DNA from: a virus
Lineage: Duplodnaviria; Caudoviricetes
Strand: one strand, 5' to 3'
Length of the DNA: 50,059 nt
Virus record (IMG/VR): IMGVR_UViG_3300027879_000002
Location: 1 to 50,059 of that record
A program made the position numbers and the translations under genes. Below are positions 9,698 through 37,396 of the stretch, piece by piece. Position 1 is the first letter of the stretch. Each line of letters opens with the position of its first letter. The notes under the pieces are model-generated. The model worked only from the letters and a program-made list of their open reading frames with translations. It made no database searches and was not told the DNA's origin.

Positions 9698-11417
9698 CGG
9701 AGCCCTCCTCCTTCTTCTCGTCCAGGTGATGCCAGACCTTCTGGTCGGGGTCCGCCTGGTGGTCGGGGCCTGGCAGGTCTAGGGCTGCTCGAACCTGCCG
9801 GGCTTCCTCTGCGGCTTCCTCTGCGGCTTCGACCATATCGGCGAACCAGTTCTTCGGGGGAGCATCGGGGGCCACGGCCAGGCGACGGCTCCACACCGTG
9901 AGGCTCGCCCGAACCAGAACGCACGCAGGGTCGTCCTCCTCGCACTCCTCGAACTCCGGCTCCCAGGTCAGCGCCTCGTAGCTTCCCTCGGAGATACCCT
10001 CCATCTCCTGGAGGTTCCCGATCTTCATGAAGTGCCAGCCCTGGATGGCGTCGTAGTCGGGGTCCGTCGTCGGAACCAGCTCCCAGCCCCGGTCCAGCCG
10101 CGCCATCGTCGCGCCCTGGTCCCGGAGCAGGTCCCAGATCGTTTGCCGCATCGGCTCGTCCCGCCACATCTCGATCGGGAAGTCCCCCGTCACCGAGACG
10201 CGCTCCCGAAGCCTGGCCTCCTGCTCGCCCGTGAATCCGGCGCCCTGAAGATCTCCCAGGCTTTCCCTGGCGGCCTCCTCGTCCATAGGGCCGCTCTTCA
10301 TCATGCGAGCGATGATCTCGTCTGACCACTGCTCGAACCCCTTCATGAAGTCCCCGTCCGGGGCAACGCCCCTTGCCTTCATGATGGCCAGCGTCTCTGC
10401 CCTGGCGTTCTTGCTGAGATCCTCAATGCCTTCCTCCCAGCCGGTAGCGAACGCCTCCCAGGCCAGAGTCACCGCCTCTGCCGGGAGCTGGTTCCGAACC
10501 TGCTCCCACCAGCTGGCAAAAAGCTCGTCCCGCTGCCGGTAGCTCTCTCCCAGGGGCTTCGGCGAGGTGCCCAGCATCGGTGAGTGCATAACATGCTCGA
10601 CGTAGACGCCCTGGTCGGCCTCCTCCCTCTCCCCGGCCTGGTCGGCGGCTGGGGTCGGCTTGCCGGGGTACCCCGACTCCTCCGGCTGCGACCCCTCCGG
10701 CCCGGAGACAGTGAAGATGATGCCGCCGATCGGGTCCATGGACCTGATCGCGGAGCCGACGGCGTCCATGAGCGCGTCGGAGAAGTAGAGCCCCTCGATA
10801 CGCACGAAGGAGATCGGGCGGCCGTCCTGGGTGAAGGACGGCGCCGGGGCGTCCTCGATTGGCCAGCGCTCTTCCTTCAGGGTGCCCTGGAAATACCTGT
10901 CGTGAATCTGGACTGGAACCCCCAGTATCTCGGCGATATCCCCCGTGCGCACCGCCGGATTGGCACCGGGCGCAACCTCTGCCGCGCGGCGCCGGAGGTA
11001 TTCGATGCCGTCCTCCCAGCTGGCGGCGAAAGCCTCTGCCGCCTCGGAGGTGTATGCCGTGCCGAAAGCCTGCTGCTCCATTTCATCCTCGAGCTGGTCT
11101 GCCAGCTCCTGGCCCACCCGGACGATGACGTCGTGGGCATTCTGATCTACGGCGCCAGGGGCGGATTCGGGCCACGGGGAGCGCCACGAGGAGGGGAGGA
11201 ATCCGCCGTCGCACATCCAGCGGTCGATGAGGGATGCCGCTCCAGTAGCAGCCTCGGCTGCCTCCCGCTCCTCGCGGCTGCCGATCTTCGCGCCCTCCCA
11301 GGCCCGGATCGCCTTGCGCTGCTGCTCCAGCCAGTGCTCGACCTCGGCTGTGACCGAAGCCCTTCCCTTCCCGGCCTTCCGGGTCCCCTCTCCTCGGGGC
11401 TCTTCCTGCTTCCCCAC
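9681..11417 (-). CDS. large acidic hypothetical protein with internal repeats
   Basis: strong GC3 bias; start probably GTG 11417 (uncertain); repeated EAFAxxWExGIExL motif. Confidence 0.7.
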   Translation of the reverse strand: MGKQEEPRGEGTRKAGKGRASVTAEVEHWLEQQRKAIRAWEGAKIGSREEREAAEAATGAASLIDRWMCDGGFLPSSWRSPWPESAPGAVDQNAHDVIVRVGQELADQLEDEMEQQAFGTAYTSEAAEAFAASWEDGIEYLRRRAAEVAPGANPAVRTGDIAEILGVPVQIHDRYFQGTLKEERWPIEDAPAPSFTQDGRPISFVRIEGLYFSDALMDAVGSAIRSMDPIGGIIFTVSGPEGSQPEESGYPGKPTPAADQAGEREEADQGVYVEHVMHSPMLGTSPKPLGESYRQRDELFASWWEQVRNQLPAEAVTLAWEAFATGWEEGIEDLSKNARAETLAIMKARGVAPDGDFMKGFEQWSDEIIARMMKSGPMDEEAARESLGDLQGAGFTGEQEARLRERVSVTGDFPIEMWRDEPMRQTIWDLLRDQGATMARLDRGWELVPTTDPDYDAIQGWHFMKIGNLQEMEGISEGSYEALTWEPEFEECEEDDPACVLVRASLTVWSRRLAVAPDAPPKNWFADMVEAAEEAAEEARQVRAALDLPGPDHQADPDQKVWHHLDEKKEEGSDATEE

Positions 11418-11689
11418 TCTGATCGCCTGCCTTCTGCCGCTGTATACGGCGTTCCTGTACGGGTAACTCGCTGAAGCGTACTCTATGCAGGGATGGAGGT
11501 AAAGGAGGAGGAGATGCCTACTGTAATGGTAGGGTATGGAAATGGAGCCCATGGACGTTAACAGAAGGAAAAACGCGCCAGCCAACTTTCTGCGGGACCA
11601 ACCAAGAACGCGCGAACCACTGGTTAACCCCGTCTTAGGCTCTGAACTATGGCACCCTCACCAGCCTGTATGGCGGGTAGTTACGGGCG

Positions 11690-12260
11690 CACCATAAACC
11701 GGGTTACGGCGCGCCACGCGGGTATACCCCTACCGGGTACCCGCTAACTCGTTAGCCTAGGTAACTAGCCTAGGTAACTACATTCGTTAGCCTAGCGTAC
11801 CAGTTTAGTTAGCGCGGCGTACTACCTACACTTAGCTAGGCTAACGGTAATCGTTAGCGGCGCGTACGACCGCCGGGTACGCCGTAGGGGGCGCCTAGGT
11901 ACCCGACCAGGCGGCGGGCGGCCGGTAGGGGCCGCTACGGGGCCGGGTAGGCCCAGTTTACGGGCCGCCTACCAGCGCAAACGCCGTACGCGGCCTAACG
12001 GGGGCGGGGTAGGGTAGTTACTAGGGTACCAGTTTTACGGGGCTTAGGGCCACGTACAATCGCACGCGGCGCTACGCGGCCGGTAGGGGCCGCCCCTAGG
12101 TGGTACCCGCGTAACTGGTAACGGCGCGTAGGTAACCGGTAACTTAAAATTACCGCAGTTTTTACCGCCTTAGGGGTAGCGCTAGCGGCCCCGGTACCGT
12201 AAAGTCGTAACTGTAAGGCCCCGCCGGGGCGGCGGGTGAGGGTAGGCCGCTTTACCGGAA
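11690..12260. other. non-coding TpA-rich, GA/TC/TG/AT-depleted block with TAGCCTAGGTAAC / CGTTAGCCTAG repeats; candidate genome end
   Basis: manual counts over 11701-12240: TA about 65, GA 3, TC 5, TG 4, AT 5, CA about 13; sits at the divergence point of transcription. Confidence 0.75.
12177..12205 (+). promoter_or_regulatory. phage promoter TAGCGC-N17-TAAAGT
   Basis: matches the genome-wide motif; upstream of the 3-gene operon. Confidence 0.7.
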
Positions 12261-12270
12261 GGAGCACATC

Positions 12271-13006: not shown

Positions 13007-13050
13007 CTAGGCCGCTAGGCCACCCGCGCACCCGTAACGCCAGTTTTCAC

Positions 13051-13079
13051 AGCCCCCGGTCACCAGCCGGGGGCTTTTT
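13051..13079 (+). terminator. intrinsic terminator
   Basis: AGCCCCCGGT-cacca-GCCGGGGGCT followed by TTTT. Confidence 0.85.
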
Positions 13080-13084
13080 CACGC

Positions 13085-14130
13085 CCATTTTCTGGCCCGG
13101 CTCACAGGCCCCAGACGTCCCCTAGGAGCCAGGAAATCACGAGGACGCGGGTAGTACGGCGACCAGTTTTTCGTCGGATACCGCCATTCTGGATCGCATG
13201 CAGCACCAGTTCTGGGGCCGCGCGGGCGCCGGAAAGCCCAGGAAATCGCCTGTAAACGCCAGGAAATCGGCCTAAGAAACGCCAGAATCGGGCGAATTTC
13301 CACCAGAAATTGGGCTAATTTCACCAGAAATAGCGTCGAGAATGTTGGCGAAATGGCGAATAATCACCACAATTTCGCCCATTTCGGCACCAGAAACAAG
13401 CGATTTACTGGTCATTTCAAGGAAAGCTGTCATTGCCATCGCCAGTTGTCGACGCGATTCGTCGCTAACTTTCAGATGTGACGTTTCTGGCCACAAAATG
13501 GCCTTTATAAATGCATTATACTCCGAATCTAGGAGCTGAAACTGTAGAGAATCGGACGAAATACTGGACTTTCTACCAGAATATTCGGATGAATTGTGCA
13601 TAATTTATTATAGCTCGAAATTCAGCCGATTTCTCGGATCGCTCTCCGCCCCCCTAGAATCACCGTATTCTGGTGTGTAATACCTGGTAGAACCCAGAAT
13701 ACCCCCCACATATTCTGGTATATTCTGGTATTCTGGGCGTGACCAGGGGAAACGCGAAATGTACGTAACTCACCGTAATCGACCTGACCAGAATTAGTAA
13801 TCGAAAATTACATATATTCTGGTATTCTGGGTCTGACCAGGGCATATGCTCGACCACAGTATCATACGATTCTAGCGCTTATTCTGGGCGTAACCAGGTG
13901 AAACAGTCGAAAATCGGACCAGAATACGCTCATTCGGGGGGGATTGAGAAATTCCGACCCAGGCGCCCCATGCCCGAAAACCCGATAGAACGAACACCAT
14001 AATCTGAAACCCGAGCGAACATAAATAACCATTCAAAGCCCGAATAGCCCCCGAATAATCCCCCGGAATAGCCATTCCATAACTGCAAGTTACCCGAACC
14101 CTACCCAAAGTTACCACAAAAAATTCCCCC
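13085..14130. repeat. AT-enriched non-coding block with many CCAG(G)AA/TTCTGG words and helically phased A/T tracts
   Basis: CCAG(G)AA at 13238, 13259, 13282, 13303, 13324, 13390; TATTCTGGG..T.ACCAGG at 13729, 13823, 13880. Confidence 0.8.
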
Positions 14131-14137
14131 TGCCCCC

Positions 14138-14166
14138 TAGCCAGCCCGCCCCACACCCCGTATACT
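14138..14166 (+). promoter_or_regulatory. phage promoter TAGCCA-N17-TATACT
   Basis: motif match with upstream AAAAAATT tract. Confidence 0.8.
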
Positions 14167-14257
14167 GGTGTTGTAGGGCCGGGTAACCCCAGCCCGGCCG
14201 GCCAGCCGCCGGTCACAGTAAATCCCACCACAGCAAAGCCCACGCATAGGAGCCCAC

Positions 14258-14626
14258 ATGAACGTCCGACGCAGCATCGCCGCCTTCCTGGTGAGCGGCG
14301 CCATGATCACCGGCGCCACCATCGCAGGCCACCTCGGGGGCACCGCCGCGAGCGCGGCCCCGACCACCCCGGCCCAGCAGCTGCACCAGCTCGAGAAGGC
14401 CTGCACGCGCGGCGCCACCTTCACCCTCGGGATCGGCTCGGGCACGGCCCGCGACCCCTACCGCGACGTCACCTTCATCTGCGCCGAGCAGCAGCCGGCC
14501 AGCCAGTGCCGCGAGGCCAGCCTGAACCCCACCTGCTTCGCCTACTACAGCCCGTACCGCACGGGCGGCGAGGCGCTGCTCGACCTGTTCGGCCAGACCA
14601 CCACGGTCGGCGGCTCCGACCAGTAG
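14258..14626 (+). CDS. small secreted protein, 4 Cys
   Basis: signal peptide-like N-terminus ending ASA; RBS AGGAG. Confidence 0.8.
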   Translation: MNVRRSIAAFLVSGAMITGATIAGHLGGTAASAAPTTPAQQLHQLEKACTRGATFTLGIGSGTARDPYRDVTFICAEQQPASQCREASLNPTCFAYYSPYRTGGEALLDLFGQTTTVGGSDQ

Positions 14627-14677
14627 CCCGGCTGGCCGCGCTAGCCCCCAGAATTTCAGGAAACTTCTGCTGAGGGC

Positions 14678-14706
14678 TAGCGCGGCCCGGCTGTAGGCGG
14701 TAGGAT
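14678..14706 (+). promoter_or_regulatory. phage promoter TAGCGC-N17-TAGGAT inside a 14-bp inverted repeat
   Basis: IR arms 14634-14647 and 14674-14687. Confidence 0.7.
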
Positions 14707-14741
14707 TGCTTTTAGTAGCCCCGCCGCCTAAGGAGCCCGGA

Positions 14742-14942
14742 ATGAAGAACCGCCTACGCCGCGCGTACCGCGCAATCGTTACCTACGCTAACGACTGGAA
14801 GTTCGCCGCGTCTGAGGAATGGGCTAGCTTCAATGAGGGTGTAGCTGATGACCGCGCTACCCGCCCCTACCTCGTCGCCGTCGCACGTAGCGCTTGGCAC
14901 TCGGCCCGGTACTTCGCTGAGTCGCGCGGCTGGCGCAGGTAG
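14742..14942 (+). CDS. small early protein
   Basis: ATG 14742 with AAGGAG RBS. Confidence 0.75.
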   Translation: MKNRLRRAYRAIVTYANDWKFAASEEWASFNEGVADDRATRPYLVAVARSAWHSARYFAESRGWRR

Positions 14943-14993
14943 CCGGAGCGCTAGCCCCGTAGGAGAAATCCCCAGGAAATTTCCTGCAGGGGC

Positions 14994-15022
14994 TAGCGCT
15001 AGGGCCAGAAATGGCGTAAGCT
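14994..15022 (+). promoter_or_regulatory. phage promoter TAGCGC-N17-TAAGCT inside a 12-bp inverted repeat
   Basis: IR arms 14947-14958 and 14989-15000. Confidence 0.7.
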
Positions 15023-15055
15023 GTAGCTAGTAGGAACCAAGACGAGGAGATCACA

Positions 15056-15562
15056 ATGTCCGACCTGTACGAGTACGACAGCGCCTACGCGATCGCAGAG
15101 GTCAGCGCGTCCACCTTCGACAGCTCCGGCTTCGGCTTCGACGCCGAGGGCCCGGTCACCACCCACCCCCAGAAGACCAGCTTCGCGGCCCCGAGCGAAG
15201 CCAGCTCCTACACCCTGGCCGCGCCCGACGGCACCACCTACACGGTCATCGTCATGAAGGGCGAGGCCATCCCGCTTACCACCAGCCCGGCCGACGAGAT
15301 CTCGGAAGAGATGCTCTTCAGCAAGACCGAGTACGTCTGGTGCGAGACCCCCGGCGCCCCGCACCGCAGCACGAACGGCGCCCCGATCCGGCACTACGCC
15401 ACCCCCTCCTGCAATTACGCCCACGGCGCGGGCCACTACCGCACCGCCTCCGAGGCCGCGCAATCCGCCCCGGCCCCCACCCGGCGCACCCGCGCAGCCG
15501 CGAGCGACCGGGCCGCCTGGCGCCAGGACGCCTGGCGCGCCGCGCACGGCCTGCCGCTGTAG
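15056..15562 (+). CDS. early hypothetical protein
   Basis: RBS GAGGAG; GC3 bias; acidic N-terminus, basic C-terminus. Confidence 0.85.
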   Translation: MSDLYEYDSAYAIAEVSASTFDSSGFGFDAEGPVTTHPQKTSFAAPSEASSYTLAAPDGTTYTVIVMKGEAIPLTTSPADEISEEMLFSKTEYVWCETPGAPHRSTNGAPIRHYATPSCNYAHGAGHYRTASEAAQSAPAPTRRTRAAASDRAAWRQDAWRAAHGLPL

Positions 15563-15567
15563 CCCCG

Positions 15568-15843
15568 ATGCCCGGCCGACACGCCCGCCCGCCCGGCCTG
15601 GGAGCGCACGCCGCTCCCGGGTCGGAGGGCATAGCCACAGAGATAGCCGCCCTGCGCGGCGCCGCGCGCGACCTGCTGGCGCCCCTAGGCCAGCCCTACG
15701 CGGGCCCAGAGGAGCTGGCCGACGAGCGGGACGACCAGCACCTCACGGTGTGGGCCTGCTCGCGCTGCTGCGAATGTGAGGATTGCTCCTGGGTTCGGGC
15801 GGCCGTCGCCGTCCTCCGCGAGATTGCCCGCGAAGACCGATAA
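15568..15843 (+). CDS. hypothetical protein with Cys cluster
   Basis: ATG 15568 just after the previous stop; CSRCCECEDC. Confidence 0.6.
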   Translation: MPGRHARPPGLGAHAAPGSEGIATEIAALRGAARDLLAPLGQPYAGPEELADERDDQHLTVWACSRCCECEDCSWVRAAVAVLREIAREDR

Positions 15844-16047
15844 CCACCGTTAAGCCCGTTTCCGCCCGGTCTGGCCCCTTACCCGGCCCGGCCGGGCGGA
15901 CCCACGTTACCGCCCGGATGCGAGCCATTCAGGCCCCTATCGGAGCCGCTACCCAGACCCAGGGGCGTAGCACCCTCCGCCCTCCCCAGCCACGCTACGC
16001 CAATCCAGGCCACAGCAAAATAAAAAGCATAAATTTCCCTGAGGGGG

Positions 16048-16076
16048 TAGCGCGGCCGGGCTGTAGCCCGTATACT
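16048..16076 (+). promoter_or_regulatory. phage promoter TAGCGC-N17-TATACT
   Basis: motif match with an A-rich UP-like element. Confidence 0.85.
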
Positions 16077-16119
16077 GTAGTTGTGGGGCCGGAGAGGCCC
16101 CCGAGCCCAGGAGATTCAG

Positions 16120-16806
16120 ATGAGGATCGAGAAGGTTAACACGACCGGCGTAGAGATCCAGGCCACCCCAGAGATCCACATGGCCCTGCGCATCCGCGAG
16201 GGCAGCATGCAGAACTGGAACAAGAACACGCGGGTGTACGCCAGCTACTCGCCGGGCGACGTGAGGCTGCTCCCCGGAGACGAGCCCCTGCCGACCCCGG
16301 CCTACAGCGCCCAGGGCGAGGACCCCGAGGCCGACGCGGCCTGGCGCCGGTACAAACTGGCCGAGATCGCGGCCATGAAGCGGATGCTGGCCGAGGCCGC
16401 ACCGCTGCTGGGCATGCTGACCGTGCGCGACGTTACCTCCCTTACCGCGCGGTTCTCGCACAAGGCCGGATGCTCCTGCGGCTGCTCGCCGGCCCTGATC
16501 CTGGACGCCCGGCTGAGCTACGACGGCCGCCCGGTCGACGTTACCCTGACCCGGACGCACGACAACCGCCCGCACGACTTCCACAGGGTGCACGCCATGG
16601 ACGCCGACAACCCCTACTACGCCTGCCAGCGGTGCACGACCGGCTCTTACCTGAAGGAGATCCAGGCCAGCTTCCAGACGCGCTTCATCTCCGACGGCAC
16701 CTACGGGCTGCCCAGCCGGGACCCCGACCTGGCAGCTGACGTCCGGGACGAGATCGCCGACGCGGACGAGCTGGGCCGGTACGAGAGCGGCGCCTGCGAC
16801 CAGTAG
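16120..16806 (+). CDS. early protein with FSxKAGCSCGCSP motif
   Basis: ATG 16120 with AGGAG RBS; probable metal-binding motif. Confidence 0.85.
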   Translation: MRIEKVNTTGVEIQATPEIHMALRIREGSMQNWNKNTRVYASYSPGDVRLLPGDEPLPTPAYSAQGEDPEADAAWRRYKLAEIAAMKRMLAEAAPLLGMLTVRDVTSLTARFSHKAGCSCGCSPALILDARLSYDGRPVDVTLTRTHDNRPHDFHRVHAMDADNPYYACQRCTTGSYLKEIQASFQTRFISDGTYGLPSRDPDLAADVRDEIADADELGRYESGACDQ

Positions 16807-16827
16807 GAAACGGCTACGCCCCAGGAC

Positions 16828-16856
16828 TAGCGAAATGCAGTCCTGGGGCGTATACT
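16828..16856 (+). promoter_or_regulatory. phage promoter TAGCGA-N17-TATACT in a 14-bp hairpin
   Basis: TACGCCCCAGGACT / AGTCCTGGGGCGTA. Confidence 0.8.
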
Positions 16857-16890
16857 GTTACCGGAAGCCCAGTTACCAGAGGAGAGCCCA

Positions 16891-17124
16891 GTGGCGAAGC
16901 TAGTGACATGCGGTACCTGCAATGGCAGCGGCAAGGTGAAGGGAGGTAAGACGTGCGGGATCTGCAAGGGGAAGGGCAAGGTCGCGCCCGATAAGCAGAT
17001 TCACCACCGCAAGCCCAAGCCGGGCGAGACGCCCCCGAGGGACGGCGTGACCTGCAAGACGTGTAAGGGCCGGGGCTTCATCGTCGACAGCGAGGGCGAG
17101 CTCAGGCAGTGCCCGGACTGCTAG
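16891..17124 (+). CDS. DnaJ-type zinc-finger (CxxCxGxG repeat) protein
   Basis: CGTCNGSG, CGICKGKG, CKTCKGRG, CPDC. Confidence 0.8.
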   Translation: MAKLVTCGTCNGSGKVKGGKTCGICKGKGKVAPDKQIHHRKPKPGETPPRDGVTCKTCKGRGFIVDSEGELRQCPDC

Positions 17125-17147
17125 GACAGCTACGCTCGCATGCAGGA

Positions 17148-17181
17148 GGCCCCGGAGACCTGAAAGGTTTCCGGGGTTTTC
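17148..17181 (+). terminator. intrinsic terminator
   Basis: GGCCCCGGAGACC-tgaaa-GGTTTCCGGGGTT followed by TT. Confidence 0.65.
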
Positions 17182-17193
17182 TGGCATAAGGGG

Positions 17194-17222
17194 TAGCGCG
17201 CCGGTAGCAGCTGGCGTATACT
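17194..17222 (+). promoter_or_regulatory. phage promoter TAGCGC-N17-TATACT
   Basis: motif match. Confidence 0.85.
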
Positions 17223-17265
17223 GTAGTTGTAGTCAGGAACCAGGCGAACACCTAAGGAGCCCACC

Positions 17266-18171
17266 GTGCCCACCACCCGAACCCCCCGCCCCGCAGCCGC
17301 CAGAGACGCAGCCCGCGTCTCCGCCGTGATCGCTTCCGGCGCCATCGCGGCCCCCGCACGGCGCACCGCTCGCGGCCGCACCCTGCCGCCGGCCAAGACC
17401 GGAAACCCGCGCGCCGACCGCGTTACCCCGGTCGTCGAGAAGCCCGCAGTCCTGGACGAGCTGCCAGCCGCCCCGGTCGGCCTCTCGGGCCAGCTGAAGT
17501 CGCACTGCCAGTTCTACCTGGCGAACGGGATGTTCCACGTCCACAAGGCCGGGTGCCGGGACGTCCGGCGCGGCCTGAAGGACAGCGACTACGACGAGGC
17601 CATCAGCGGCCAGTGGGCCACCGAGGAGGAGGCCATCCGCGAGCTCTGGGACGACCAGATCCACGACGACGTCAAGCGCGGCGTGGACCCCGAGCCCCCG
17701 GCCGCCGAGCTGCTCGGCTACCTGACCGAGACGAACTTCAGCCCCTGCTGCAACCTGATCCCGTTCCCGTCGCCGGTCAGCAGGGACGAGGACGGCAATG
17801 CCCTGGAGGCCGGGCCGATCGTGACCGTCGTAGAGCCGAAGCCCGCGCCGCGCGACACCGAGAAGGCCGCTCGCGCTCGCGCCGTCCGGCGCCAGACCAG
17901 GCCAAAGGGCCAGCCGACGACGACCACCCCGACCACCCCGGCCCGGCCCGAGAGCGCCGCTACCGCAGCGCGACGCGAGGCGAAGCGCAAGCTGGCCCGC
18001 AAGGTGCTGCTGGCGGCCGAGGAGATGGTGAAGGGGCTGCCCGAGGGCGAGCGCCAGGCAGCAGCATCGACGGTCAGCCAGTGGCTGCACCACCTGCCGG
18101 TGCGCGGCGACGACGACGGCCGCTGGTGGCCCACCTCCTTCCCGACCCCCGACCGGTCGGACTGGCGGTAG
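17266..18171 (+). CDS. early protein: FHVHxxGC...PCC core with basic low-complexity linkers
   Basis: GTG with AAGGAG RBS; GC3 bias. Confidence 0.8.
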   Translation: MPTTRTPRPAAARDAARVSAVIASGAIAAPARRTARGRTLPPAKTGNPRADRVTPVVEKPAVLDELPAAPVGLSGQLKSHCQFYLANGMFHVHKAGCRDVRRGLKDSDYDEAISGQWATEEEAIRELWDDQIHDDVKRGVDPEPPAAELLGYLTETNFSPCCNLIPFPSPVSRDEDGNALEAGPIVTVVEPKPAPRDTEKAARARAVRRQTRPKGQPTTTTPTTPARPESAATAARREAKRKLARKVLLAAEEMVKGLPEGERQAAASTVSQWLHHLPVRGDDDGRWWPTSFPTPDRSDWR

Positions 18172-18175
18172 CGAG

Positions 18176-18412
18176 ATGGCGAAGATCAGCGCGCGAGGCG
18201 CAACCGAGGTGGGCCGAGTTAAGGCCAGGACCACCTCGGGGGTGGAGTTCCTGTTCGTTATGACGAGCGACGGCCGCGTCCTACGCCGGGCTACCGGAGA
18301 CTTGGCAACAGGGTACATCCTGCTCAGCCGGGGCGTAGCTCCCCAGAGGCGGAACATCGAGACCCTGCGGCGCATCGTTACCTCCTGCTACAGGATGAAC
18401 ATAATCAGCTGA
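18176..18412 (+). CDS. small basic protein
   Basis: follows the previous stop by 4 nt. Confidence 0.7.
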   Translation: MAKISARGATEVGRVKARTTSGVEFLFVMTSDGRVLRRATGDLATGYILLSRGVAPQRRNIETLRRIVTSCYRMNIIS

Positions 18413-18431
18413 AGTCTGTAGCCCGTACCCC

Positions 18432-18460
18432 TAGCCGGGGGCGGGCTACAGGCGTATACT
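18432..18460 (+). promoter_or_regulatory. phage promoter TAGCCG-N17-TATACT in a hairpin
   Basis: CTGTAGCCCG / CGGGCTACAG stem with TAGC in the loop region. Confidence 0.8.
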
Positions 18461-18498
18461 GATACCAGTAGCCCACCCCCGGACGTAGGAGGATATCT

Positions 18499-18714
18499 GT
18501 GACGCTAGAGCTGATGGTAATGGTGAACGACGGCGAGACGCTAGACGACGTCGCGCGTGAGCTGGTCGGCCCCAAGGGCAAGGCCACGTACGAGGTGCTT
18601 GGACTGCTACCGGGCGACCAGTGGCCCACGCTGCGATTCACCGGCACGGTGAACCAGCTGGTAGCGATATGTGCGGTGGCGAGGCAGTTCGGCAGGACCT
18701 GTACGCCAGCCTGA
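18499..18714 (+). CDS. small early protein
   Basis: GTG with AGGAGG RBS. Confidence 0.75.
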   Translation: MTLELMVMVNDGETLDDVARELVGPKGKATYEVLGLLPGDQWPTLRFTGTVNQLVAICAVARQFGRTCTPA

Positions 18715-18742
18715 ATCGCATGGAATTACTGGCCCCTGCTAC

Positions 18743-18771
18743 TAGCGCGGCGGGGGCCAGTAGCGTATACT
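18743..18771 (+). promoter_or_regulatory. phage promoter TAGCGC-N17-TATACT in a hairpin
   Basis: TACTGGCCCC / GGGGCCAGTA stem. Confidence 0.85.
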
Positions 18772-18799
18772 GTAGTTAGTTAGCCCACCAGGAGGACAG

Positions 18800-19105
18800 A
18801 TGGCAGAAATGAAGGGCACCCCGGTGCCTGAGGTTACAGAGAAGCGAGCCGTGACGAATATCGTCTGGGTCAGGATCGTCTGGGAGCAGCACGAGTTCGT
18901 ACGGATCGGCAAGGTTAACGGGATCAGGCTGTTCAGCATCATGTGGCACAACAGAAAGTCTGACCCGAACTGGATCATGAGGTGCGACCTGCCCGGTTAC
19001 GACGCCAGCACGCAGCGCTGGTGCGACGACGACCGGTCCTTCCTTGAGAGCAAGGCGGCCGACATGCTGGTCTTCTGGCTCCGGAGGATCAGGGGAGAGC
19101 AGTAA
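18800..19105 (+). CDS. early hypothetical protein
   Basis: AGGAGG RBS. Confidence 0.8.
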   Translation: MAEMKGTPVPEVTEKRAVTNIVWVRIVWEQHEFVRIGKVNGIRLFSIMWHNRKSDPNWIMRCDLPGYDASTQRWCDDDRSFLESKAADMLVFWLRRIRGEQ

Positions 19106-19488
19106 TGCCGCCGCCCAAGACGCCCATCAAGAAGCCGGGTAAGCCCGGCAAGGGCGACAGGCCGCCCGGCCGCCCACCAGCCCCAGGCGGCCCGGTGAAC
19201 CCTCCCGACCCTAGCGAGAAGCGACGGCCAGAACTGGTCCGACTGTTCCACCCCGGGGTGCTGATGTACACGAACCCGTACGCCGGAGTGATAGGCCTGG
19301 CCCTGATCCTGCTCGTTCTCGCCGGGTTCCAGAAGGCATGGCGTGATCACCGGCATCCCTTGTGCTACCACGACGACACCGTTCCGTGCAGGATCACGGG
19401 GCCGACCGGGATCTGTCATGATCCGTGCTGCCCTGGCTACGGCGAGATCGGCCAGTGCGTCCCGCACCGGACCAGGAGGAAGCCATGA
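19105..19488 (+). CDS. Pro-rich single-pass membrane protein with Cys/His-rich C-terminus
   Basis: TAATG coupling; TM segment VIGLALILLVLAGF. Confidence 0.7.
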   Translation: MPPPKTPIKKPGKPGKGDRPPGRPPAPGGPVNPPDPSEKRRPELVRLFHPGVLMYTNPYAGVIGLALILLVLAGFQKAWRDHRHPLCYHDDTVPCRITGPTGICHDPCCPGYGEIGQCVPHRTRRKP

Positions 19489-19580
19489 GGCTTTGCTACA
19501 GGTGCGCCCGCCACGCCGGGGAGCGGTGGCACTGGTGCATCCGGCTGGCCTGCGACTGCCCCTGCCGGGGCCGGCAGTGA
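19485..19580 (+). CDS. 31-aa Cys-rich peptide (not in ORF track)
   Basis: ATGA coupling, AGGAGG RBS; MRLCYRCARHAGERWHWCIRLACDCPCRGRQ. Confidence 0.55.
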   Translation: MRLCYRCARHAGERWHWCIRLACDCPCRGRQ

Positions 19581-19691
19581 CGCGATTGTCGTAGTGGCTT
19601 AGGGGACAGAGATCGCATGCAGAGGGGTATACGCGGCCCTTACGGGGCCGCTATACTCCTCTGACCCACACCTAGGCGAGAGGAATAGCAG

Positions 19692-19943
19692 ATGGCCGGT
19701 ACGGCGGAGGAGAGGGCAGAGGCCAAGGAGGCCTTCGGAACCAAGAGCGGTGCGAAGCAGTACGTTGCCTGGTTCCTGGCGACGAGCTTGCAGGGGGTTT
19801 GCGAGAGCCCGGAGAAAATGCTCACAGACATGGGGTACAATCCAAAGTCCCTGAGCCCGGCCCAGATGCAGCGATTCGTGGATGGCGTGGCTGCGATCGA
19901 GGCGGCCCTGAAGCGTATGGCCGGTCCGCTTATGGAGGAGTAG
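19692..19943 (+). CDS. hypothetical protein
   Basis: GAGGA RBS; TATACT at 19652. Confidence 0.8.
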   Translation: MAGTAEERAEAKEAFGTKSGAKQYVAWFLATSLQGVCESPEKMLTDMGYNPKSLSPAQMQRFVDGVAAIEAALKRMAGPLMEE

Positions 19944-19947
19944 TGGA

Positions 19948-19987
19948 AGGGCCGGGTCTACCTGACGAGGGGAGGTAGACCCGGCCC
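19948..19987. terminator. 15-bp hairpin between convergent units
   Basis: GGGCCGGGTCTACCT / AGGTAGACCCGGCCC. Confidence 0.7.
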
Positions 19988-20039
19988 AGCTCTGGGGCGC
20001 ACCTTAGACGCAGCGCGTCATATCGTACCGAATTCCCAG

Positions 20040-20176
20040 CGTAGGGCCGGGAAGACCTTCCCAGTTCCCCTCCGTCTCATCCCGGAGGGGCATCTCTGGT
20101 GGGCTCGATCGACCCAGGGTCGGACGGGGCAGTCAGCCCTGAGGCCAGGCACTCCGGTGAACTTCCCGGCCCTACG
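20040..20176 (-). ncRNA. candidate structured small RNA of unknown family
   Basis: 15-bp terminal stem plus internal hairpins; 5' end lies 6 nt downstream of a consensus promoter. Confidence 0.65.
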
Positions 20177-20182
20177 ACTACG

Positions 20183-20211
20183 ACTATACGCCACAGCCTA
20201 TCCCCGCGCTA
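20183..20211 (-). promoter_or_regulatory. phage promoter TAGCGC-N17-TATAGT on the minus strand
   Basis: reverse complement of ACTATA (20183-88) and GCGCTA (20206-11). Confidence 0.75.
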
Positions 20212-20731
20212 GCTCTTCGCTCCACATTTCTTTCCGCAATTCAGAGGACTGGCGTGCACGACGTAGCGCGCACAGAGCGTGACGGGTAGCATCGCGGACG
20301 TGTTCGCTACCCTTAACGTACAGCCCCAGCGCTCTTAGCCGTTCGTCAGTGAGAGCCTGCTTGGCCTGGACGCGAGACTGGAACGTCACCCTGGCGTCGC
20401 TAAGGTCACCCCGGTGCTGGGCGTACAGGAGCATTGCACCGATGCGCGCGGGGCTAAGAGCAGAAGTGTCCCTGCTCTGGAAATGCGGATCGACATCCCA
20501 GCGCTCAACAACAAGAGCAGGGCCAACAAGGTAGTCAAGAGACTGCGTCTCACGAGCAAGCCGGGCTAGCAGAACTACCTGCTGAGGCTCGTGACCGGAA
20601 ACCTCGCCATAGTCCCATTCAATAATGCTGCTCTCCTCCCTCCCGAATACAGAATCGCGCGGTACTGTAAGCCTGCACCAGCCAGTTGTGCCGCCAGGAT
20701 CGATACCTATGACGTGTATATTCCTGAGCAT
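20198..20731 (-). CDS. RuvC-like Holliday junction resolvase
   Basis: VIGIDPGGTTGW, LVVE, AK, HVRDATRH. Confidence 0.8.
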   Translation of the reverse strand: MLRNIHVIGIDPGGTTGWCRLTVPRDSVFGREESSIIEWDYGEVSGHEPQQVVLLARLARETQSLDYLVGPALVVERWDVDPHFQSRDTSALSPARIGAMLLYAQHRGDLSDARVTFQSRVQAKQALTDERLRALGLYVKGSEHVRDATRHALCALRRARQSSELRKEMWSEELARG

Positions 20732-20905
20732 ATAACGACGTCCTATTCGAGAGGGATAGCTAAGCGTATCCTAGGGAGGCCCGAGAGGCGCACGAGGTAA
20801 CTTACCGGGAAAATGGGAAAGGGGCCGGACTGACCATCCGGCCCCTCTAGAGCTTCCCCAGGCGAAGGGAAAGGAAGGTCCCCGCGTGACTAAGGGCCAA
20901 CGGAT

Positions 20906-22858
20906 ATGACTATACCTCCCGCTTCGGATTCGGCGCTAGTCGTAGCCCATCAGCTGGTGGATATGGGGGTCCCCGTATTCGCCGCACGGCTGAATGCAGA
21001 TGGAACGCCGGATAGACAGGATAGAAGATGGCAGGGGTACCAGAAGAAGGTAGCTGGCGCACGATGCCATGCATCCATTAGCGGATTCAAGGATGGCGAG
21101 GCTCTATGTGCCGTTACCGGCGTGGTATTCGACGTCATTGATCACGATCTACAGAACGACCCTTCTGGCCTAGCGCTAAAGCAGATGTCAGAGGACCTTG
21201 GAGATTTCGGCCCTGAGGTTTATCTGGAAACCCGAACGCCAAGCGGAGGCACGCACCTCTGGGTGGTGCACCAGGATATAGGGACCCATCCAGGATTCAG
21301 GAAAGGGCTGGACTATAAGGGTGGCAATCCCGACGGTAGTAGTAGGGGATTCGTATTCCTTCCGCCTACCATCCGCAGGAGTAAGCGCGATGGGCAGATA
21401 CACCCCTATGAGTATCGCTCCGAGCTAACTCGGCCGGATCCTGACGACTTCTGCCAGGCCTTGTGCGACTACGTTCTTGCAGGTCGTGGCCAGAGAGAAG
21501 AGGAAGTAGAAAGGCCAGCCAGGGAGGAAGTCGATCGGCTACGCATGGCCTGCGTCGCAGCCGAGGCCGGGGGACAGAGAGCAGCGCTCCTACGTTACGT
21601 TCACGAGCTGGAGCGCAAGGGATACGCCAGGACCGATATTCTCAGGCTGCTGAAATCCCTGAAGCTTCCTGCCTATAATCCACGGCGCCCCTGGCGAGAG
21701 CGCGACTTCATGGGGCTGTTCCATCAGCGCGGGACGATCATTCCAGACGCGATCCCAGGCGAGCTTGATGGCATAGATAGCATTAAGCGCGTAACGTCAG
21801 ACGCGGCGCGCTGGCTTAGAGAGATAACGCCGACTCAGCTGAAATGGCTAGCCGCCCCATTGTTCCCATTCGGATGCCTCGTGATCATAGACGGAGACCC
21901 CGGCATCGGTAAGTCTGTTCTGACTCTTGCTATGATGTGCAGGGCATCCCGAGGCGAGCCGATATTCCCAGGTGATCCAGGAATGGGAGAGCCAATAAAC
22001 TGCGCTATAGTCGGAGCCGAAGACGATCTAAGCTCTGTGGTGATCCCTAGAATCCTGGCCAATGGCGGAGACATAGACCGTTTCGTCACGATGCCCGTCA
22101 AGAGGAAGAGGGGAGGAGGACTAGAGCTGCTTACATTCCCAGACGGTGTAAATAAGCTGGAGGCTATGCTAGCGGCTAGCGGCGCCAGATTCTGCACCAT
22201 AGACCCTATATCCTCATTTCTAGGAGAGGATATCAGCAGCCACAATGACGCCAGCGTACGCCGAGCGCTGCAGCCTGTGGTAGAAGTAGCGCAGCGTCAG
22301 CAATGCTGTATATTTCTGGTCAGGCATCTGAACAAGGACAATAGCATGAAAGCCATGTACCGGGGTGGCGGTTCCATAGCCTTCTCCGGGATAGCCCGAT
22401 CAGGTCTGATAGCTGGAACCCTTCCTGATGGTAGTGGCTACGGCATAGCCCAGGTTAAGAGCAGTAACGCAGAGGGACTAGAAGGCTGCCTGGCGTATAC
22501 CATAGATAAGCAGACGGTGAAGATTCCGGGCTCTGGCGTCACAGAGATGCCACTCATCAGATGGCTGGGACAGAGCGACTATACGGCTGACGATCTGGTT
22601 CGGGGCGAGGACGGGCGTAACGGAAACGGCAGAGCTCCAATTCAGCAGCAGATGGTTGAGGAATGCCTGCTAGCGCTTATCCAGGAATATGGCGGTAGTC
22701 CTATTCCGGCCGGTGAGGCGCTGGCCTACATAAAGGCTGATGGCTGTAGCACTTCGCCCATAGTTCTGGCCAAGGCTCGCGAGGCTGTAGGGCTGCGCTC
22801 AGTTCCGCAGAAAAGTGAGACAGGGAGGATGCAGGGCTGGGCCTGGATCTACGGGTAG
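20906..22858 (+). CDS. bifunctional primase-polymerase fused to an AAA_25/RecA-like helicase
   Basis: VIDHD, TPSGGTHLW; Walker A GDPGIGKS, TIDPI, VRHLNK, GSIAF. Confidence 0.9.
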   Translation: MTIPPASDSALVVAHQLVDMGVPVFAARLNADGTPDRQDRRWQGYQKKVAGARCHASISGFKDGEALCAVTGVVFDVIDHDLQNDPSGLALKQMSEDLGDFGPEVYLETRTPSGGTHLWVVHQDIGTHPGFRKGLDYKGGNPDGSSRGFVFLPPTIRRSKRDGQIHPYEYRSELTRPDPDDFCQALCDYVLAGRGQREEEVERPAREEVDRLRMACVAAEAGGQRAALLRYVHELERKGYARTDILRLLKSLKLPAYNPRRPWRERDFMGLFHQRGTIIPDAIPGELDGIDSIKRVTSDAARWLREITPTQLKWLAAPLFPFGCLVIIDGDPGIGKSVLTLAMMCRASRGEPIFPGDPGMGEPINCAIVGAEDDLSSVVIPRILANGGDIDRFVTMPVKRKRGGGLELLTFPDGVNKLEAMLAASGARFCTIDPISSFLGEDISSHNDASVRRALQPVVEVAQRQQCCIFLVRHLNKDNSMKAMYRGGGSIAFSGIARSGLIAGTLPDGSGYGIAQVKSSNAEGLEGCLAYTIDKQTVKIPGSGVTEMPLIRWLGQSDYTADDLVRGEDGRNGNGRAPIQQQMVEECLLALIQEYGGSPIPAGEALAYIKADGCSTSPIVLAKAREAVGLRSVPQKSETGRMQGWAWIYG

Positions 22859-22884
22859 CGGAATGGCTTCAGCTGGCGTACACT
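22856..22884 (+). promoter_or_regulatory. promoter TAGCGG-N17-TACACT, leaderless to ATG 22891
   Basis: TAG doubles as the primase stop codon; 6 nt from the -10 to ATG. Confidence 0.7.
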
Positions 22885-22890
22885 ACAGTT

Positions 22891-23220
22891 ATGAGATGCA
22901 GCAAATGCGGCCACAAGATCTGGTCGACAAGAGCGCTGAATTGCGGCCTCGGAGAAGGCTGCCGAAGAAGGGTGTACCGCGCTGCCAGGTCTCTGGAGAG
23001 CAGCGACAGCAAGCCGGCCAAGCTGGCTGCAGAGCTGATCCTGGACGGAGGGGTGCAGAAGATGCCGGGGCACGGCGGCCGGGTATGGCGTACCGTCAGC
23101 TCGAAGGGCTCTACCGGCTATCTGACCACGACCGGACAGTGCAACTGCAGGCAGGGGCTCAACAGGATGCCGTTCCTATGCCACCACAGGGTGGCAGTGA
23201 TCGTGATGGTGGAGGCGTGA
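22891..23220 (+). CDS. Zn-finger protein (DUF6011-like plus SWIM-like)
   Basis: CSKCG...GLGEGC; CNC...CHHRVAV. Confidence 0.75.
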   Translation: MRCSKCGHKIWSTRALNCGLGEGCRRRVYRAARSLESSDSKPAKLAAELILDGGVQKMPGHGGRVWRTVSSKGSTGYLTTTGQCNCRQGLNRMPFLCHHRVAVIVMVEA

Positions 23221-23417
23221 TGAAGAGCATATTCGTAGTGCTACAGCCTAAAAGCAACACCAACAACAGCGACAAGTACCGGGTCGTTGACAGCCAGAGC
23301 TGGTTCGCTTTCGTCAACGGGGCCAGGAAGAGCGCTGCCGTCTTCGGTGAGTTCGACAGCCTGCTGGAAGCCGAGAAGAGCCGGGACGAGCTCAACAGCG
23401 AGCTCAGCAATGGCTAG
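23220..23417 (+). CDS. small hypothetical protein
   Basis: GGAGG RBS, TGATG coupling; MKSIFVV... Confidence 0.7.
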   Translation: MKSIFVVLQPKSNTNNSDKYRVVDSQSWFAFVNGARKSAAVFGEFDSLLEAEKSRDELNSELSNG

Positions 23418-23658
23418 CCCAGAAGCCACGGGGGCTCAGCGGAATCTGCTTAACGTGCTGCGCCTGATGCTAGGGCTGACGCAGGTACCCGCTAGCGAGT
23501 ATCTGGCTGCCTCTTACGCAGGAGCTATGATAGGCCAGCTCAAGAGGCAGGTGAACGAGGGTGAGATGGTGCGCTGCCCATCTTGCGAAGGCCGGCACGA
23601 GAACTTCGAGCAGGCCAGGGAATGCTATCGCTCCATGAAGCTGAGCAACAAGCTGTAG
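23410..23658 (+). CDS. small protein with ATxxQ module and CxxC-H-RECY finger
   Basis: shares modules with 24729-25361. Confidence 0.7.
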   Translation: MASPEATGAQRNLLNVLRLMLGLTQVPASEYLAASYAGAMIGQLKRQVNEGEMVRCPSCEGRHENFEQARECYRSMKLSNKL

Positions 23659-23684
23659 CTTTCTGGAGTCAGATGGCGTATACT
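23656..23684 (+). promoter_or_regulatory. promoter TAGCTT-N17-TATACT
   Basis: TAG is the upstream stop codon. Confidence 0.75.
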
Positions 23685-23715
23685 CGCTCTATAAGCCCAC
23701 AAGGAGGAGAGACCA

Positions 23716-24732
23716 GTGGAAGTTTCAGACCTACTCCGAAGAGTCAGGAGCCTGATAGCCAAGGCTGAAGACTGCGAGAAGCCAGAGAGCACGGCTTTCA
23801 GCCCGGAGGAGTCGCAGGCGTATCGCGCCAAGGCTGACGAGCTGATGACCAAGTACGCAGTAGACGAGGCGCTGCTACAGGCAAGTCGCCCGGCTGGCAT
23901 GCGCACCCTGCCCGGCTCTATCGAGCTAGAGCTTGCAGGCGGCGGGTTCGAGATGCAGCATTACCTCTGCAATCTGCTAGAGAGCATCGCGTACCACAAC
24001 CGCTGCAAGTTGCGGTCGTACGGAAGATACGACTACGACAAGAAATGCTGGATGGCGAAGGTGTACGGATTCGAGGCCGACCTTCGCTTTGTCGAGATGC
24101 TCTACACTACTCTTCGCCTGCACATGCTAGACGCATTGCGGCCCAAGATCCACCCCGGCCTTACGCTGGAAACAAACTGCTATCGGCTTCACAAGGCCGG
24201 TTACAACTGGCTTGAAATCGCCAGGATGTATGGCTGGAGGAAGAGCGTAGCTTACGGTTCGGAGACCGGCGAGATCTGGGAGAACAAGGACGGCCGACGC
24301 TGGGGTAACCACAAGGTCGGAAGCATGTACAAGCGCGCTTGCTACCGGGGTTACCGGGCCAGGGGCGAGGAGCCGGAGAGAATCCCTGCGGGAGCTACGC
24401 AAACTTACCGCAGCTCAGCTGCACAAGGTTACACCTCGGGCATCAGCAGCAGGCTACGACAGGCTTCCAGCGGCAGGGGCGCCGGGACCGATATCGTTCT
24501 GCGAGGTCAGATGGATCTCATAGACGAGCTCTTCCGGAACGATAACGCTGACCTGTTCGCAGAGCCAGAGCCAGTCACGGATCCGCCGAAGAAGAGCGGC
24601 CGAAAGACTGCCGCCTACAAGCCCCCGCCATTCAGCCGGTCGGCTTACGAGGCAGGCCACGCACACGCCCAGACCGCAGACCTGACGAACAACAGCACTG
24701 CGGAAGGCCGGAAGCGGGAGGTTTCGTCATGA
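23716..24732 (+). CDS. DUF2786-like domain protein
   Basis: LLRRVRSLIAKAE...EE..AY..KADELMTKYAVD; VYGFEADL. Confidence 0.8.
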   Translation: MEVSDLLRRVRSLIAKAEDCEKPESTAFSPEESQAYRAKADELMTKYAVDEALLQASRPAGMRTLPGSIELELAGGGFEMQHYLCNLLESIAYHNRCKLRSYGRYDYDKKCWMAKVYGFEADLRFVEMLYTTLRLHMLDALRPKIHPGLTLETNCYRLHKAGYNWLEIARMYGWRKSVAYGSETGEIWENKDGRRWGNHKVGSMYKRACYRGYRARGEEPERIPAGATQTYRSSAAQGYTSGISSRLRQASSGRGAGTDIVLRGQMDLIDELFRNDNADLFAEPEPVTDPPKKSGRKTAAYKPPPFSRSAYEAGHAHAQTADLTNNSTAEGRKREVSS

Positions 24733-25361
24733 TAAGATGCGGGAGCTGCCGGAAGACCCATCAGACAGTGCAGCAGGTACGCGAGTGCTACGGGAACCCC
24801 CTCAGGCTGCAGCTCGAGCCTGCAACCGATGGCCAGCTCAGATTCCTATCTACGCTGTTCCTTGAGCGGGGCATGGAGGATCTGACGGGAGTCTCCGACC
24901 CCGAAACAAGGAAGGAGTTCACCAAGGCTTCGGCTAGCGAGTGGATCAGCGACATGGTGAGCAAGAAGCGCGAGAAAGGCTACCAGAAACTAGTTTCCGA
25001 TGTGCCGGCGGGCTACTATGCCACCAGAGGGGACGATGGGAAGGAATCTGCAGATGGCGACCCCGAGGGGTACGGAGAGCCGCCTCTTGACTTCTGGTGC
25101 GTCCAGCGGCCGGAAGAAGGCAATTGGGCTGGCATGGTATTCGTCAAGCGCGTTCTCGGCGGACACGACCTGATAACCCTTCCCAGGAAGATGCAGAGAA
25201 TGGCTCTGGAGCGGATAGGCCAGGAAGGACACGAGGAGGCCGGTAAGCTATTCGGCGTCAGCCTTGGTCGCTGCTACGCCTGCGGAACGTCCCTGACAGA
25301 CGCGCTGAGCCGAGAACTTGGGATAGGCCCTGACTGCCGGAAGAAGTGGAACGCACGGTGA
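24729..25361 (+). CDS. multi-module Zn-finger protein with C-terminal DUF6011-like domain
   Basis: GRCYACGTSLTD..SRELGIGPDC. Confidence 0.8.
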   Translation: MIRCGSCRKTHQTVQQVRECYGNPLRLQLEPATDGQLRFLSTLFLERGMEDLTGVSDPETRKEFTKASASEWISDMVSKKREKGYQKLVSDVPAGYYATRGDDGKESADGDPEGYGEPPLDFWCVQRPEEGNWAGMVFVKRVLGGHDLITLPRKMQRMALERIGQEGHEEAGKLFGVSLGRCYACGTSLTDALSRELGIGPDCRKKWNAR

Positions 25362-25364
25362 AAG

Positions 25365-25417
25365 GAGCCCTGGAGGAATAAACCTACCAATTAGGTAGGG
25401 ATATTCCTCCAGGGCTC
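25365..25417. terminator. long hairpin (terminator or processing site)
   Basis: GAGCCCTGGAGGAATA / TATTCCTCCAGGGCTC with inner CCTACC/GGTAGG. Confidence 0.65.
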
Positions 25418-25446
25418 TCTACTTTGCAGCAGAATTCTCCCAGTCC

Positions 25447-25475
25447 TAGCCAAAATGCAGTATGAGGAGTATACT
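25447..25475 (+). promoter_or_regulatory. promoter TAGCCA-N17-TATACT, leaderless to ATG 25482
   Basis: 6 nt between the -10 and ATG. Confidence 0.8.
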
Positions 25476-25481
25476 GTAGTC

Positions 25482-36219: not shown

Positions 36220-37241
36220 AGTTCGTCAACCTTCATCACCACAGCACCTTTAGCTTTGGTGACGGGTTCGGTACCCCGGCTCAGCACGTAGCCCGCGCGG
36301 CTGAGCTGGGGTACACGGCTATCGCCCTGACCGAGCATGGCAATGTCAGCTCGCACTTCCAGCTGGAGAAGTCTGCGCTAAAGGCAGGCGTAAAGCCCAT
36401 CTTCGGTCTGGAGGCATATTGCGGCCCCGTGGAAGAGAACGCCAGGCAGCAGTTCAAGAACCACCTAACGATCCTGGCCGAGAACCTGGATGGGTATCGC
36501 GGACTGAATAGGATAGTCACGCAGTCCTACCTCGATTACTACCACCACCCCACAGTTTCCGGAAGAAGCCTCTCAGACAACAAGTCTGGATTGATCACTC
36601 TATCGGGATGCTCAGGCTCTCTTCTGGCCTGTACCCTCCTCGGGGGGAAGGGCATCCCCGAGCCCACCTCTAGGTCAGAGAAAGTTCAGTACTTCAGCAA
36701 TGCCATGGAAGTAGCGGCAAAGTTCCAGCGTGCGTTCGGCAAAAGCTACTTCCTAGAGGTACAGCATTTCCACGAGCTTGAGAAAACGATGTATATTAAC
36801 ATGGCATACGCGAGGATTGGACGGGAGCTTGGAATCCCCCTTGTGGTCACCGGGGACGTTCACTATCCCAATCCGGACGAAGGCGAGATGCAGGCTGTAC
36901 TCCACGCCGTACATCGCGGGCATCACTCTGTAGATGACGCCATGAGAAAGTGGAACTACGAAGTGCCAATGACACTTCCAGAGTCAGACGACGCATTGCT
37001 GAACAGGCTACTCCTTACCGGACTTTCATTCGAAGAGGCTTTCGATGCCATAGAAACCAGCTCTAGGATAGCCGAGCGCTGCAATGTAACGCTACCGAAA
37101 GCGGAGCGTCTCGAGTATCCTATCAGCAAGGAGGACCACGAGCCATGGACGAAGAGCTTACGGATAGGCTTACGAAGCTGGACAAGTTCCTGGAAGTCGC
37201 TAATAAATCCGAATTCATCAGGAGTCTTCTCTGGTCCATGA
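36216..37241 (+). CDS. dnaE: DnaE-like polymerase, PHP-domain subunit
   Basis: LHHHSTFSFGDG, ALTEHG, KPIFGLEAY, HLTILA, TGDVHY. Confidence 0.9.
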   Translation: MKFVNLHHHSTFSFGDGFGTPAQHVARAAELGYTAIALTEHGNVSSHFQLEKSALKAGVKPIFGLEAYCGPVEENARQQFKNHLTILAENLDGYRGLNRIVTQSYLDYYHHPTVSGRSLSDNKSGLITLSGCSGSLLACTLLGGKGIPEPTSRSEKVQYFSNAMEVAAKFQRAFGKSYFLEVQHFHELEKTMYINMAYARIGRELGIPLVVTGDVHYPNPDEGEMQAVLHAVHRGHHSVDDAMRKWNYEVPMTLPESDDALLNRLLLTGLSFEEAFDAIETSSRIAERCNVTLPKAERLEYPISKEDHEPWTKSLRIGLRSWTSSWKSLINPNSSGVFSGP

Positions 37242-37396
37242 TGCTTCTTGATGCTGAGAGTGTTCTGCACATCACCGACCCCAACGAGCTAGGCCCGGCC
37301 ACCTATCTGCATGACAAGGCACTGGGGCTCCTTCGGGATCAGGGTTTCAGTGAATCTCAGATAATTGCCATTATCGATTCAAGGCCGTCTATATGA
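37145..37396 (+). CDS. 83-aa hypothetical protein inserted between the DnaE halves
   Basis: AAGGAGG RBS; ATGA-coupled to the catalytic subunit. Confidence 0.7.
   Translation: MDEELTDRLTKLDKFLEVANKSEFIRSLLWSMMLLDAESVLHITDPNELGPATYLHDKALGLLRDQGFSESQIIAIIDSRPSI

Follow-up and report, generated by a model that had tools for sequence, protein, structure and literature searches.

A probably terminal island stripped of GA/TC and CA/TG steps in an uncultured actinophage-like siphovirus, and switching of the missing step among its relatives

The window, which is the whole stretch of 50,059 nt analysed here (IMG/VR record IMGVR_UViG_3300027879_000002), comes from an uncultured actinophage-like siphovirus. 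Head genes are carried on the minus strand and genes for a Prim-Pol, a helicase, an exonuclease, Sak4, a ThyX-like protein and DnaE on the plus strand. By its capsid the closest isolate is Streptomyces phage Dagobah (46%), and the DnaE is 48% identical to that of mycobacteriophage PLot. The same phage is present on a longer contig of 62.8 kb (L081), from which it follows that about 12.8 kb of the genome is absent from the window; about 4 kb of that part was examined. Thirteen family records, found via DnaE or capsid searches, were compared (the window, G005 to G009 and G017 to G023). The probable terS was found in all 13 and resembles the Dagobah gene before terL (E 1e-8). The features of the locus are given in Table 1.

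Table 1. Features at and around the dinucleotide-depleted island (positions in the window)
Feature	Position	Strand	Basis or remark
Terminase large subunit (terL)	5792..7180	-	Closest to Thermobifida phage P1312 (59% identity) and Streptomyces phage Dagobah (51%)
Probable small terminase subunit (terS)	8304..8855	-	Assigned from position; 2.8 kb from island
Dinucleotide-depleted non-coding island	11672..12258	.	Dinucleotide counts vs expectation
43-nt stretch, candidate protein-binding site	11768..11810	.	84% identity to G005, and dispersed repeats
Promoter-like motif match (TAGC...TATACT type)	12174..12207	+	Matrix score 12.4
First small plus-strand ORF, 80 aa	12271..12513	+	GA/TC and CA/TG use normal
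Adjoining repeat block, largely non-coding, internal control	13050..14100	.	GA/TC 138 vs 131; CA/TG 113 vs 131

Some of the genes vary within the family. The DnaE region (36216-39633) consists of two ORFs, one with the PHP domain and one with the polymerase; in PLot and Gibson DnaE is annotated as a single gene of about 3.2 kb. Family members encode a PF09250 Prim-Pol. That of G020 (L356 1613-3583) is divergent and without the AAA_25 domain, and there was no Prim-Pol match in G023 (95 kb, rated complete). Between 33659 and 36080 are a conserved flavoprotein, a ThyX-like protein and a small protein (35631-36080), which occur in the same 7 family records. The ThyX motif is RHR, and RQR is found in the ThyX-like protein of the window; the small protein presumably resembles nucleotide pyrophosphatases. 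The flavoprotein (33659-34468) has 277 homologues, with matches to Rossmann motifs only.

As the initial annotation had it, the island lies where late and early transcription diverge, with minus-strand head genes on one side and small plus-strand genes on the other. It is adjoined by a long minus-strand ORF (9681-11585) with a weak HNH match (E 2.5e-5) that is common only to the window and G017. The region from 13050 to 14200 is AT-rich and largely non-coding, with repeated ATTCTGG/CCAGAAT units and inverted repeats, and is possibly an origin or a second end-processing site. The islands of G008, G009, G020 and G022 also have repeat blocks of this kind beside them. The control part of this block has normal step counts though it is largely non-coding, thus the bias of the island is not caused by lack of coding alone. 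Promoter-like sequences of the form TAGC(G/C)...TATACT are present in at least 10 copies in 14135-27771, mostly on the plus strand and ahead of small genes. A matrix built from 7 of these, at 14.1-19.7 kb, gave the match at the right end of the island, which on its sequence is likely to be the promoter of the first early gene; a stock sigma-70 scan gave no match within the island. Outside the island too, the 7 promoter-like cores are GA/TC-poor (20 vs 50).

The dinucleotide depletion is real and far beyond chance. The counts first made over 11701-12240 are exact (TA 65, GA 3, TC 5, TG 4, AT 5, CA 13), and GA, TC, CA and TG together occur 25 times, compared with 125 +/- 7 in 20,000 base shuffles, the lowest of which held 95. 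These four steps amount to 0.13 of A+T. The other 540-nt segments of the genome average 0.66 and go no lower than 0.42, and none approaches the depletion of the island. The best-fitting limits for all four steps (Table 1) enclose 27 vs 150 expected; GA/TC alone gives 11659-12258 (8 vs 81) and CA/TG alone 11694-12265 (17 vs 69). Depletion is stronger for GA/TC (0.12 of expected) than for CA/TG (0.28), these and the ratios for other genomes below being biased low because the segments were picked by maximal depletion; in the 400-nt scan control classes were put through the same search. On the right the ban extends up to the ribosome-binding site that precedes the ORF at 12271. All flanking contexts of the banned steps are depleted and both strands are alike. 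The simplest rule is that T is almost never before G or C on either strand. TA is 3.6-fold high; this excess and the deficit of AT arise largely because T was left only A or T as followers. A deamination model (CA to TA, TC to TT) was rejected for its poor fit, since AA/TT is raised only 1.2-fold and there is no drop in GC. The suggestion of selection for TpA flexibility is not supported, there being no periodicity of TA in the island (p=0.89) and no TA richness in the TC-type islands of G018 and G019.

The island is no simple tandem repeat, and it holds short dispersed repeats that exceed the dinucleotide model (AGTTAC, z 6.2; CCTAGG, z 3.7). Short blocks are common to the window and G005, and to G009 and G022. 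The counterpart of the 43-nt stretch in G005 lies within the gap upstream of terS, and repeats D2, D7 and I15 are concerned. Folded as DNA the island is no better than shuffles (z -0.65). It has no match in an Rfam search, nor by blastn against 50,697 phage records. An unchanged 700 nt is also present in L081 and in one Logan contig, both of which may be the window's own source. Among the sequencing runs listed with the sequence there is one of DNA, which may be the source and has contigs of flat depth, and none of RNA.

A clear island is present 1-6 kb upstream of terS in 7 of the 13 family genomes, the island-to-terS distance being 0.9-5.8 kb in the 8 measured. The bias had been expected to persist in relatives: the position of the island is indeed kept, but which step is missing varies, and it may be TC, TG or both. 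The ban covers both classes in the window, in G008 (0.27 and 0.21) and in G022 (0.10 and 0.26), GA/TC only in G018 (0.27) and G019 (0.35), and CA/TG only in G020 (0.06 over 864 nt) and G021 (0.18). Short or weak GA/TC islands are found in G005, G007 and G009. G006 and G023 have no island at the position upstream of terS, and the G017 record stops before it. In the 400-nt scan of 19 genomes the banned classes reach 0.00-0.37, and the lowest values of the control classes AC/GT and AG/CT are not under 0.45. On a capsid-portal-terL tree the three types are not clades. The genes flanking the islands of G018 and G019 are co-directional, therefore nearness to terS holds more widely than divergence of the flanking genes.

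Beyond the family, kilobase GA/TC-free islands directly before terS occur in two of 80 terL-related viral loci, L051 (2 vs 128) and L055 (9 vs 155). The other 78 are without a kilobase island, many of them being too short to extend upstream. Whole records of the terL relatives G001 to G004 have no island, and locus searches with the primase and with terS gave no match. In L054, another terminase relative, CG is scarce (26 vs 95) over 1.1 kb ahead of terL, at 7633-8738.

Judging from predicted ORFs, the ban overrides coding in these distant relatives. The L051 island contains a predicted ORF of 204 aa that lacks Asp, Glu and GA/TC altogether; in its two paralogues, which lie on that contig too, there are 12-13 acidic residues and 49 and 60 GA/TC. 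Acid-poor predicted ORFs are also inside the islands of G018 and G019. Small Cys-X2-Cys paralogues were seen as well, three in L051 and two in L055, with one copy within each GA/TC-free island.

Outside the islands, at four-fold silent sites genome-wide, T is favoured before the base that the island bans (Spearman -0.77, n=9, p=0.016), a trend across related genomes that leans on two of TG type (without them -0.5, n=7, p=0.25) and does not reach significance for A (p=0.33). A CA/TG-poor segment in G023 that is not upstream of terS was left out of this correlation, which was earlier -0.82 with n=10.

The initial annotation placed the island at the leading end of the genome. A position at a genome end is supported by analogy with two isolates, Dagobah and iggy; the window itself is known from assembled contigs. 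Dagobah (MT711977) has a direct terminal repeat of 1,187 nt called by PhageTerm (PMC7650747), in which positions 990-1166 contain 2 GA/TC vs 20 +/- 3.4, with none of 5,000 shuffles as low. This patch of 177 nt ends 21 nt short of the right terminus and about 115 nt ahead of the terS-like gene. In iggy, with a repeat of 1,091 nt and termini placed by Nanopore read mapping (PMC10484667), a GA/TC-poor island (11 vs 61) ends 42 nt short of the record end. Because of these patches beside termini a genome-end location is likely, and the phage's terminus probably lies at or near the island. By the same analogy a cut would be expected at roughly 11640-11690, by the island edge that faces terS. In CAjan a weaker patch, AT-rich and poor in the four steps (24 vs 73), matches the position of the ECP2304 left end. 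Segments at left termini that are poor in the GC step were also seen in Siara (1-316, 1 vs 27) and ECP2304 (51-355, 0 vs 19), due in part to AT richness. No island was found in PLot, Gibson, Xkcd426, P1312 (25-60 kb), Siara or the ends of HVTV-1. A GA-poor segment in Samson was set aside, as it looks like low-complexity coding sequence. A contig junction of G020 falls within its island but at a tandem repeat, and is therefore uninformative on termini.

The feature is thus real, conserved in position and probably terminal. Our preferred reading, held tentatively and with well under even confidence, is that the island is kept free of a context-specific base modification. It would be a control zone at or next to the genome end, with a terminal-repeat or packaging signal and the first early promoter; T-then-G/C steps would carry the modification, which would hinder proteins working there, and the modifying enzyme would come from the host or be a phage protein that has escaped recognition. 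The specificity of the ban, as counted, is in favour: only GA/TC and CA/TG are banned, never the control classes. Depletion in all flanking contexts is as a dinucleotide-specific enzyme would need. Also in favour are the place of the islands ahead of terS and in the Dagobah repeat, the strictness of the ban in the L051 ORF, the GA-modifying iggy with its own island, phage T-dioxygenases that prefer NTC or NTG, the GA/TC-poor promoter cores and the silent-site trend within its limits. Against it count the family genomes with no island or a weak one, the rarity of strong islands among DpdA-carrying isolates and the distance of Dagobah. The flavoprotein, the ThyX-like protein and the small protein are putative, unassigned candidates for that enzyme; the first two are also present in PLot and Gibson, both of which are without an island. 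A DpdA query had no match in the window, G005, G007, G008, G009 (complete), G015 and G016, although it reached Rosebush at 34% identity and the window is short of the 12.8 kb noted above. An island is absent from YuA and PaMx11, which hypermodify thymine, and homologues of the M6/YuA/PaMx11 enzymes (5-HMUDK, AADT, dU hydroxymethylase) were not found: only helicases matched YuA, and nothing matched PaMx11 (E 1e-6). A protein like the TET-associated glycosyltransferases is encoded in G020 (L356 17884-18696; E 3e-4, below the cut-off) without a TET gene; its cluster is found in G007, G019 and G020 only, and the G020 copy was scanned. The accessible part of PMC8989533 holds no sequence-context data. 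No known modifying enzyme was found in these searches.

It is unlikely, in our judgement, that a host defence hits incoming ends at TC or TG, with the end region purged of these steps and the ban dependent on the host. The initial annotation had proposed a purge of defence motifs, and GATC, GAAC/GTTC and TNTC are indeed absent from the island; the end position, supported by analogy, also agrees with such an attack. The scatter of island types on the virion-protein tree is what host-driven change would give, no phage enzyme is needed, and end-sensing defences exist (PMC12904381, bioRxiv 2025.08.30.673261). However, the missing motifs are only those that contain GA/TC, and none of the motifs tested falls below what the ban alone predicts. 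Palindromes are enriched rather than depleted relative to base shuffles, with 66 of 4 bp vs 41.7 (70.4 in dinucleotide shuffles) and 20 of 6 bp vs 11.2 (23.8); GGCC occurs 12 times vs 5.9 in base shuffles, and there are five KpnI and four AvrII sites. The GajA motif TNNNS/RGGNNA (PMC8136825) misfits, with 0 observed in the island vs 1.3 +/- 1.2. The first 20 kb of T5, which is first to enter, has no dinucleotide ban, and the 13050-14100 block next to the island is normal. A defence directed at TC or TG was not found in the literature, and the available portions of the two end-sensing papers name no dinucleotide target.

Biased repair is improbable, though several of the observations suit it. 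Terminal-repeat copies would anneal in each infection and T:G mismatches be converted to C:G in one context, so that TC or TG would be erased inside the repeat and enriched elsewhere by deamination. The sharp edges, the strand symmetry and the override of coding agree with this, as do the GC content of most family islands, which are GC-richer than their own genomes, the T/C silent-site trend opposite to the island, and the Sak4-like annealase and exonuclease that the phage encodes. Against this, only the last 200 of the 1,187 repeat nt of Dagobah are affected, the island of the window is hardly GC-richer than its genome (63 vs 61%), and the promoter cores outside it are GA/TC-poor too. A repair enzyme specific for a dinucleotide is not known from these hosts.

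It seems quite improbable that the steps are missing only because short protein-binding repeats, now a degenerate array, grew from a seed motif that happened to be without them. The repeats in excess of the dinucleotide model, the blocks shared between genomes and the visibly repetitive islands of Dagobah and L051 speak for it. Yet spacers and ORFs follow the ban as well, TA shows no period, and arbitrary seeds should sometimes have dropped AC/GT or AG/CT, which is never so in the 19 genomes.

Highly improbable is a zone without Prim-Pol start sites, in which a strand would stay unprimed during duplication of the end. The family does encode a Prim-Pol of the PF09250 type, and the genome of the strongest TG type, G020, has a swapped one. 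The pRN1 primase, which we take to be a member of the prim-pol clade, provides a parallel. It needs GTG (PMC2034472), and the N. equitans primase reads a T-centred triplet (PMC10250227); a context-free ban is a poor fit to triplet-reading primases, and the TC and 'both' types are not grouped on the primase tree. A translation-free leader, in which GA loss would remove Shine-Dalgarno sites and TG loss start codons, can be dismissed as very remote, since the shifts from base shuffles that it would explain (Shine-Dalgarno-like words 1 vs 14, ATG/CAT 2 vs 12.6, stop triplets 78 vs 20) all equal the dinucleotide-shuffle expectation and the ban is symmetric and crosses ORFs in G018, G019, L051 and L055.

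The novelty lies in the pattern; any mechanism is a proposal. No prior description of such islands was found in the open full-text literature, as judged by titles and abstract openings. A dinucleotide that is due every few bases is banned over 0.2-1.1 kb, even in genes, which argues for a strong pressure on the chemistry of end DNA, and this pressure is explained by no system found. We give not quite even weight to the wider proposal that many tailed phages carry a terminal zone without one dinucleotide, so strictly kept that even the genes inside it lose Asp and Glu, and that the missing step (TC, TG or both) would reveal, from sequence alone, the target of an undiscovered enzyme that modifies DNA or attacks its ends and changes its specificity fast. 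The switching between TC and TG is a natural comparison set for the hunt for such an enzyme, and the pattern could mark termini and modification contexts in uncultured phages.

Among known systems, restriction sites are avoided in the first-entering DNA of T5 (the first-step-transfer region) and T7 (the left end). The likeness is motif avoidance limited to a likely terminal region; here, in contrast, the ban is on a dinucleotide, palindromes are enriched relative to base shuffles and the step switches among relatives. The phage T-dioxygenases 5mYOX97 and 5mYOX176 prefer NTC and NTG (PMC13229309), which are the two banned classes, but none of the 17 records searched, of which 3 are at least 90% complete, has a match to Tet_JBP (PF12851). 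In iggy about 97% of GA sites are modified (PMC10484667), and CAjan modifies GA and GGC (PMC10484667, PMC7544227); an island is not mentioned in the available portions of these papers. Like the window, these GA-modifying phages have a step-poor island or patch, at the record end in iggy, but they encode DpdA, which was found neither in the window nor in the relatives tested. Of six DpdA-carrying isolates one, iggy, has a strong GA island, and as CA/TG is banned as well in the window, a GA-specific enzyme cannot explain it. Dagobah, like the window, has a GA/TC-poor segment, a GA/TC-free patch at the terS-side end of its terminal repeat. It differs in that its patch is short, CA/TG-rich and not TA-rich, and it is only 46-51% identical to the window; as a cultured carrier of the pattern, it makes it directly testable.
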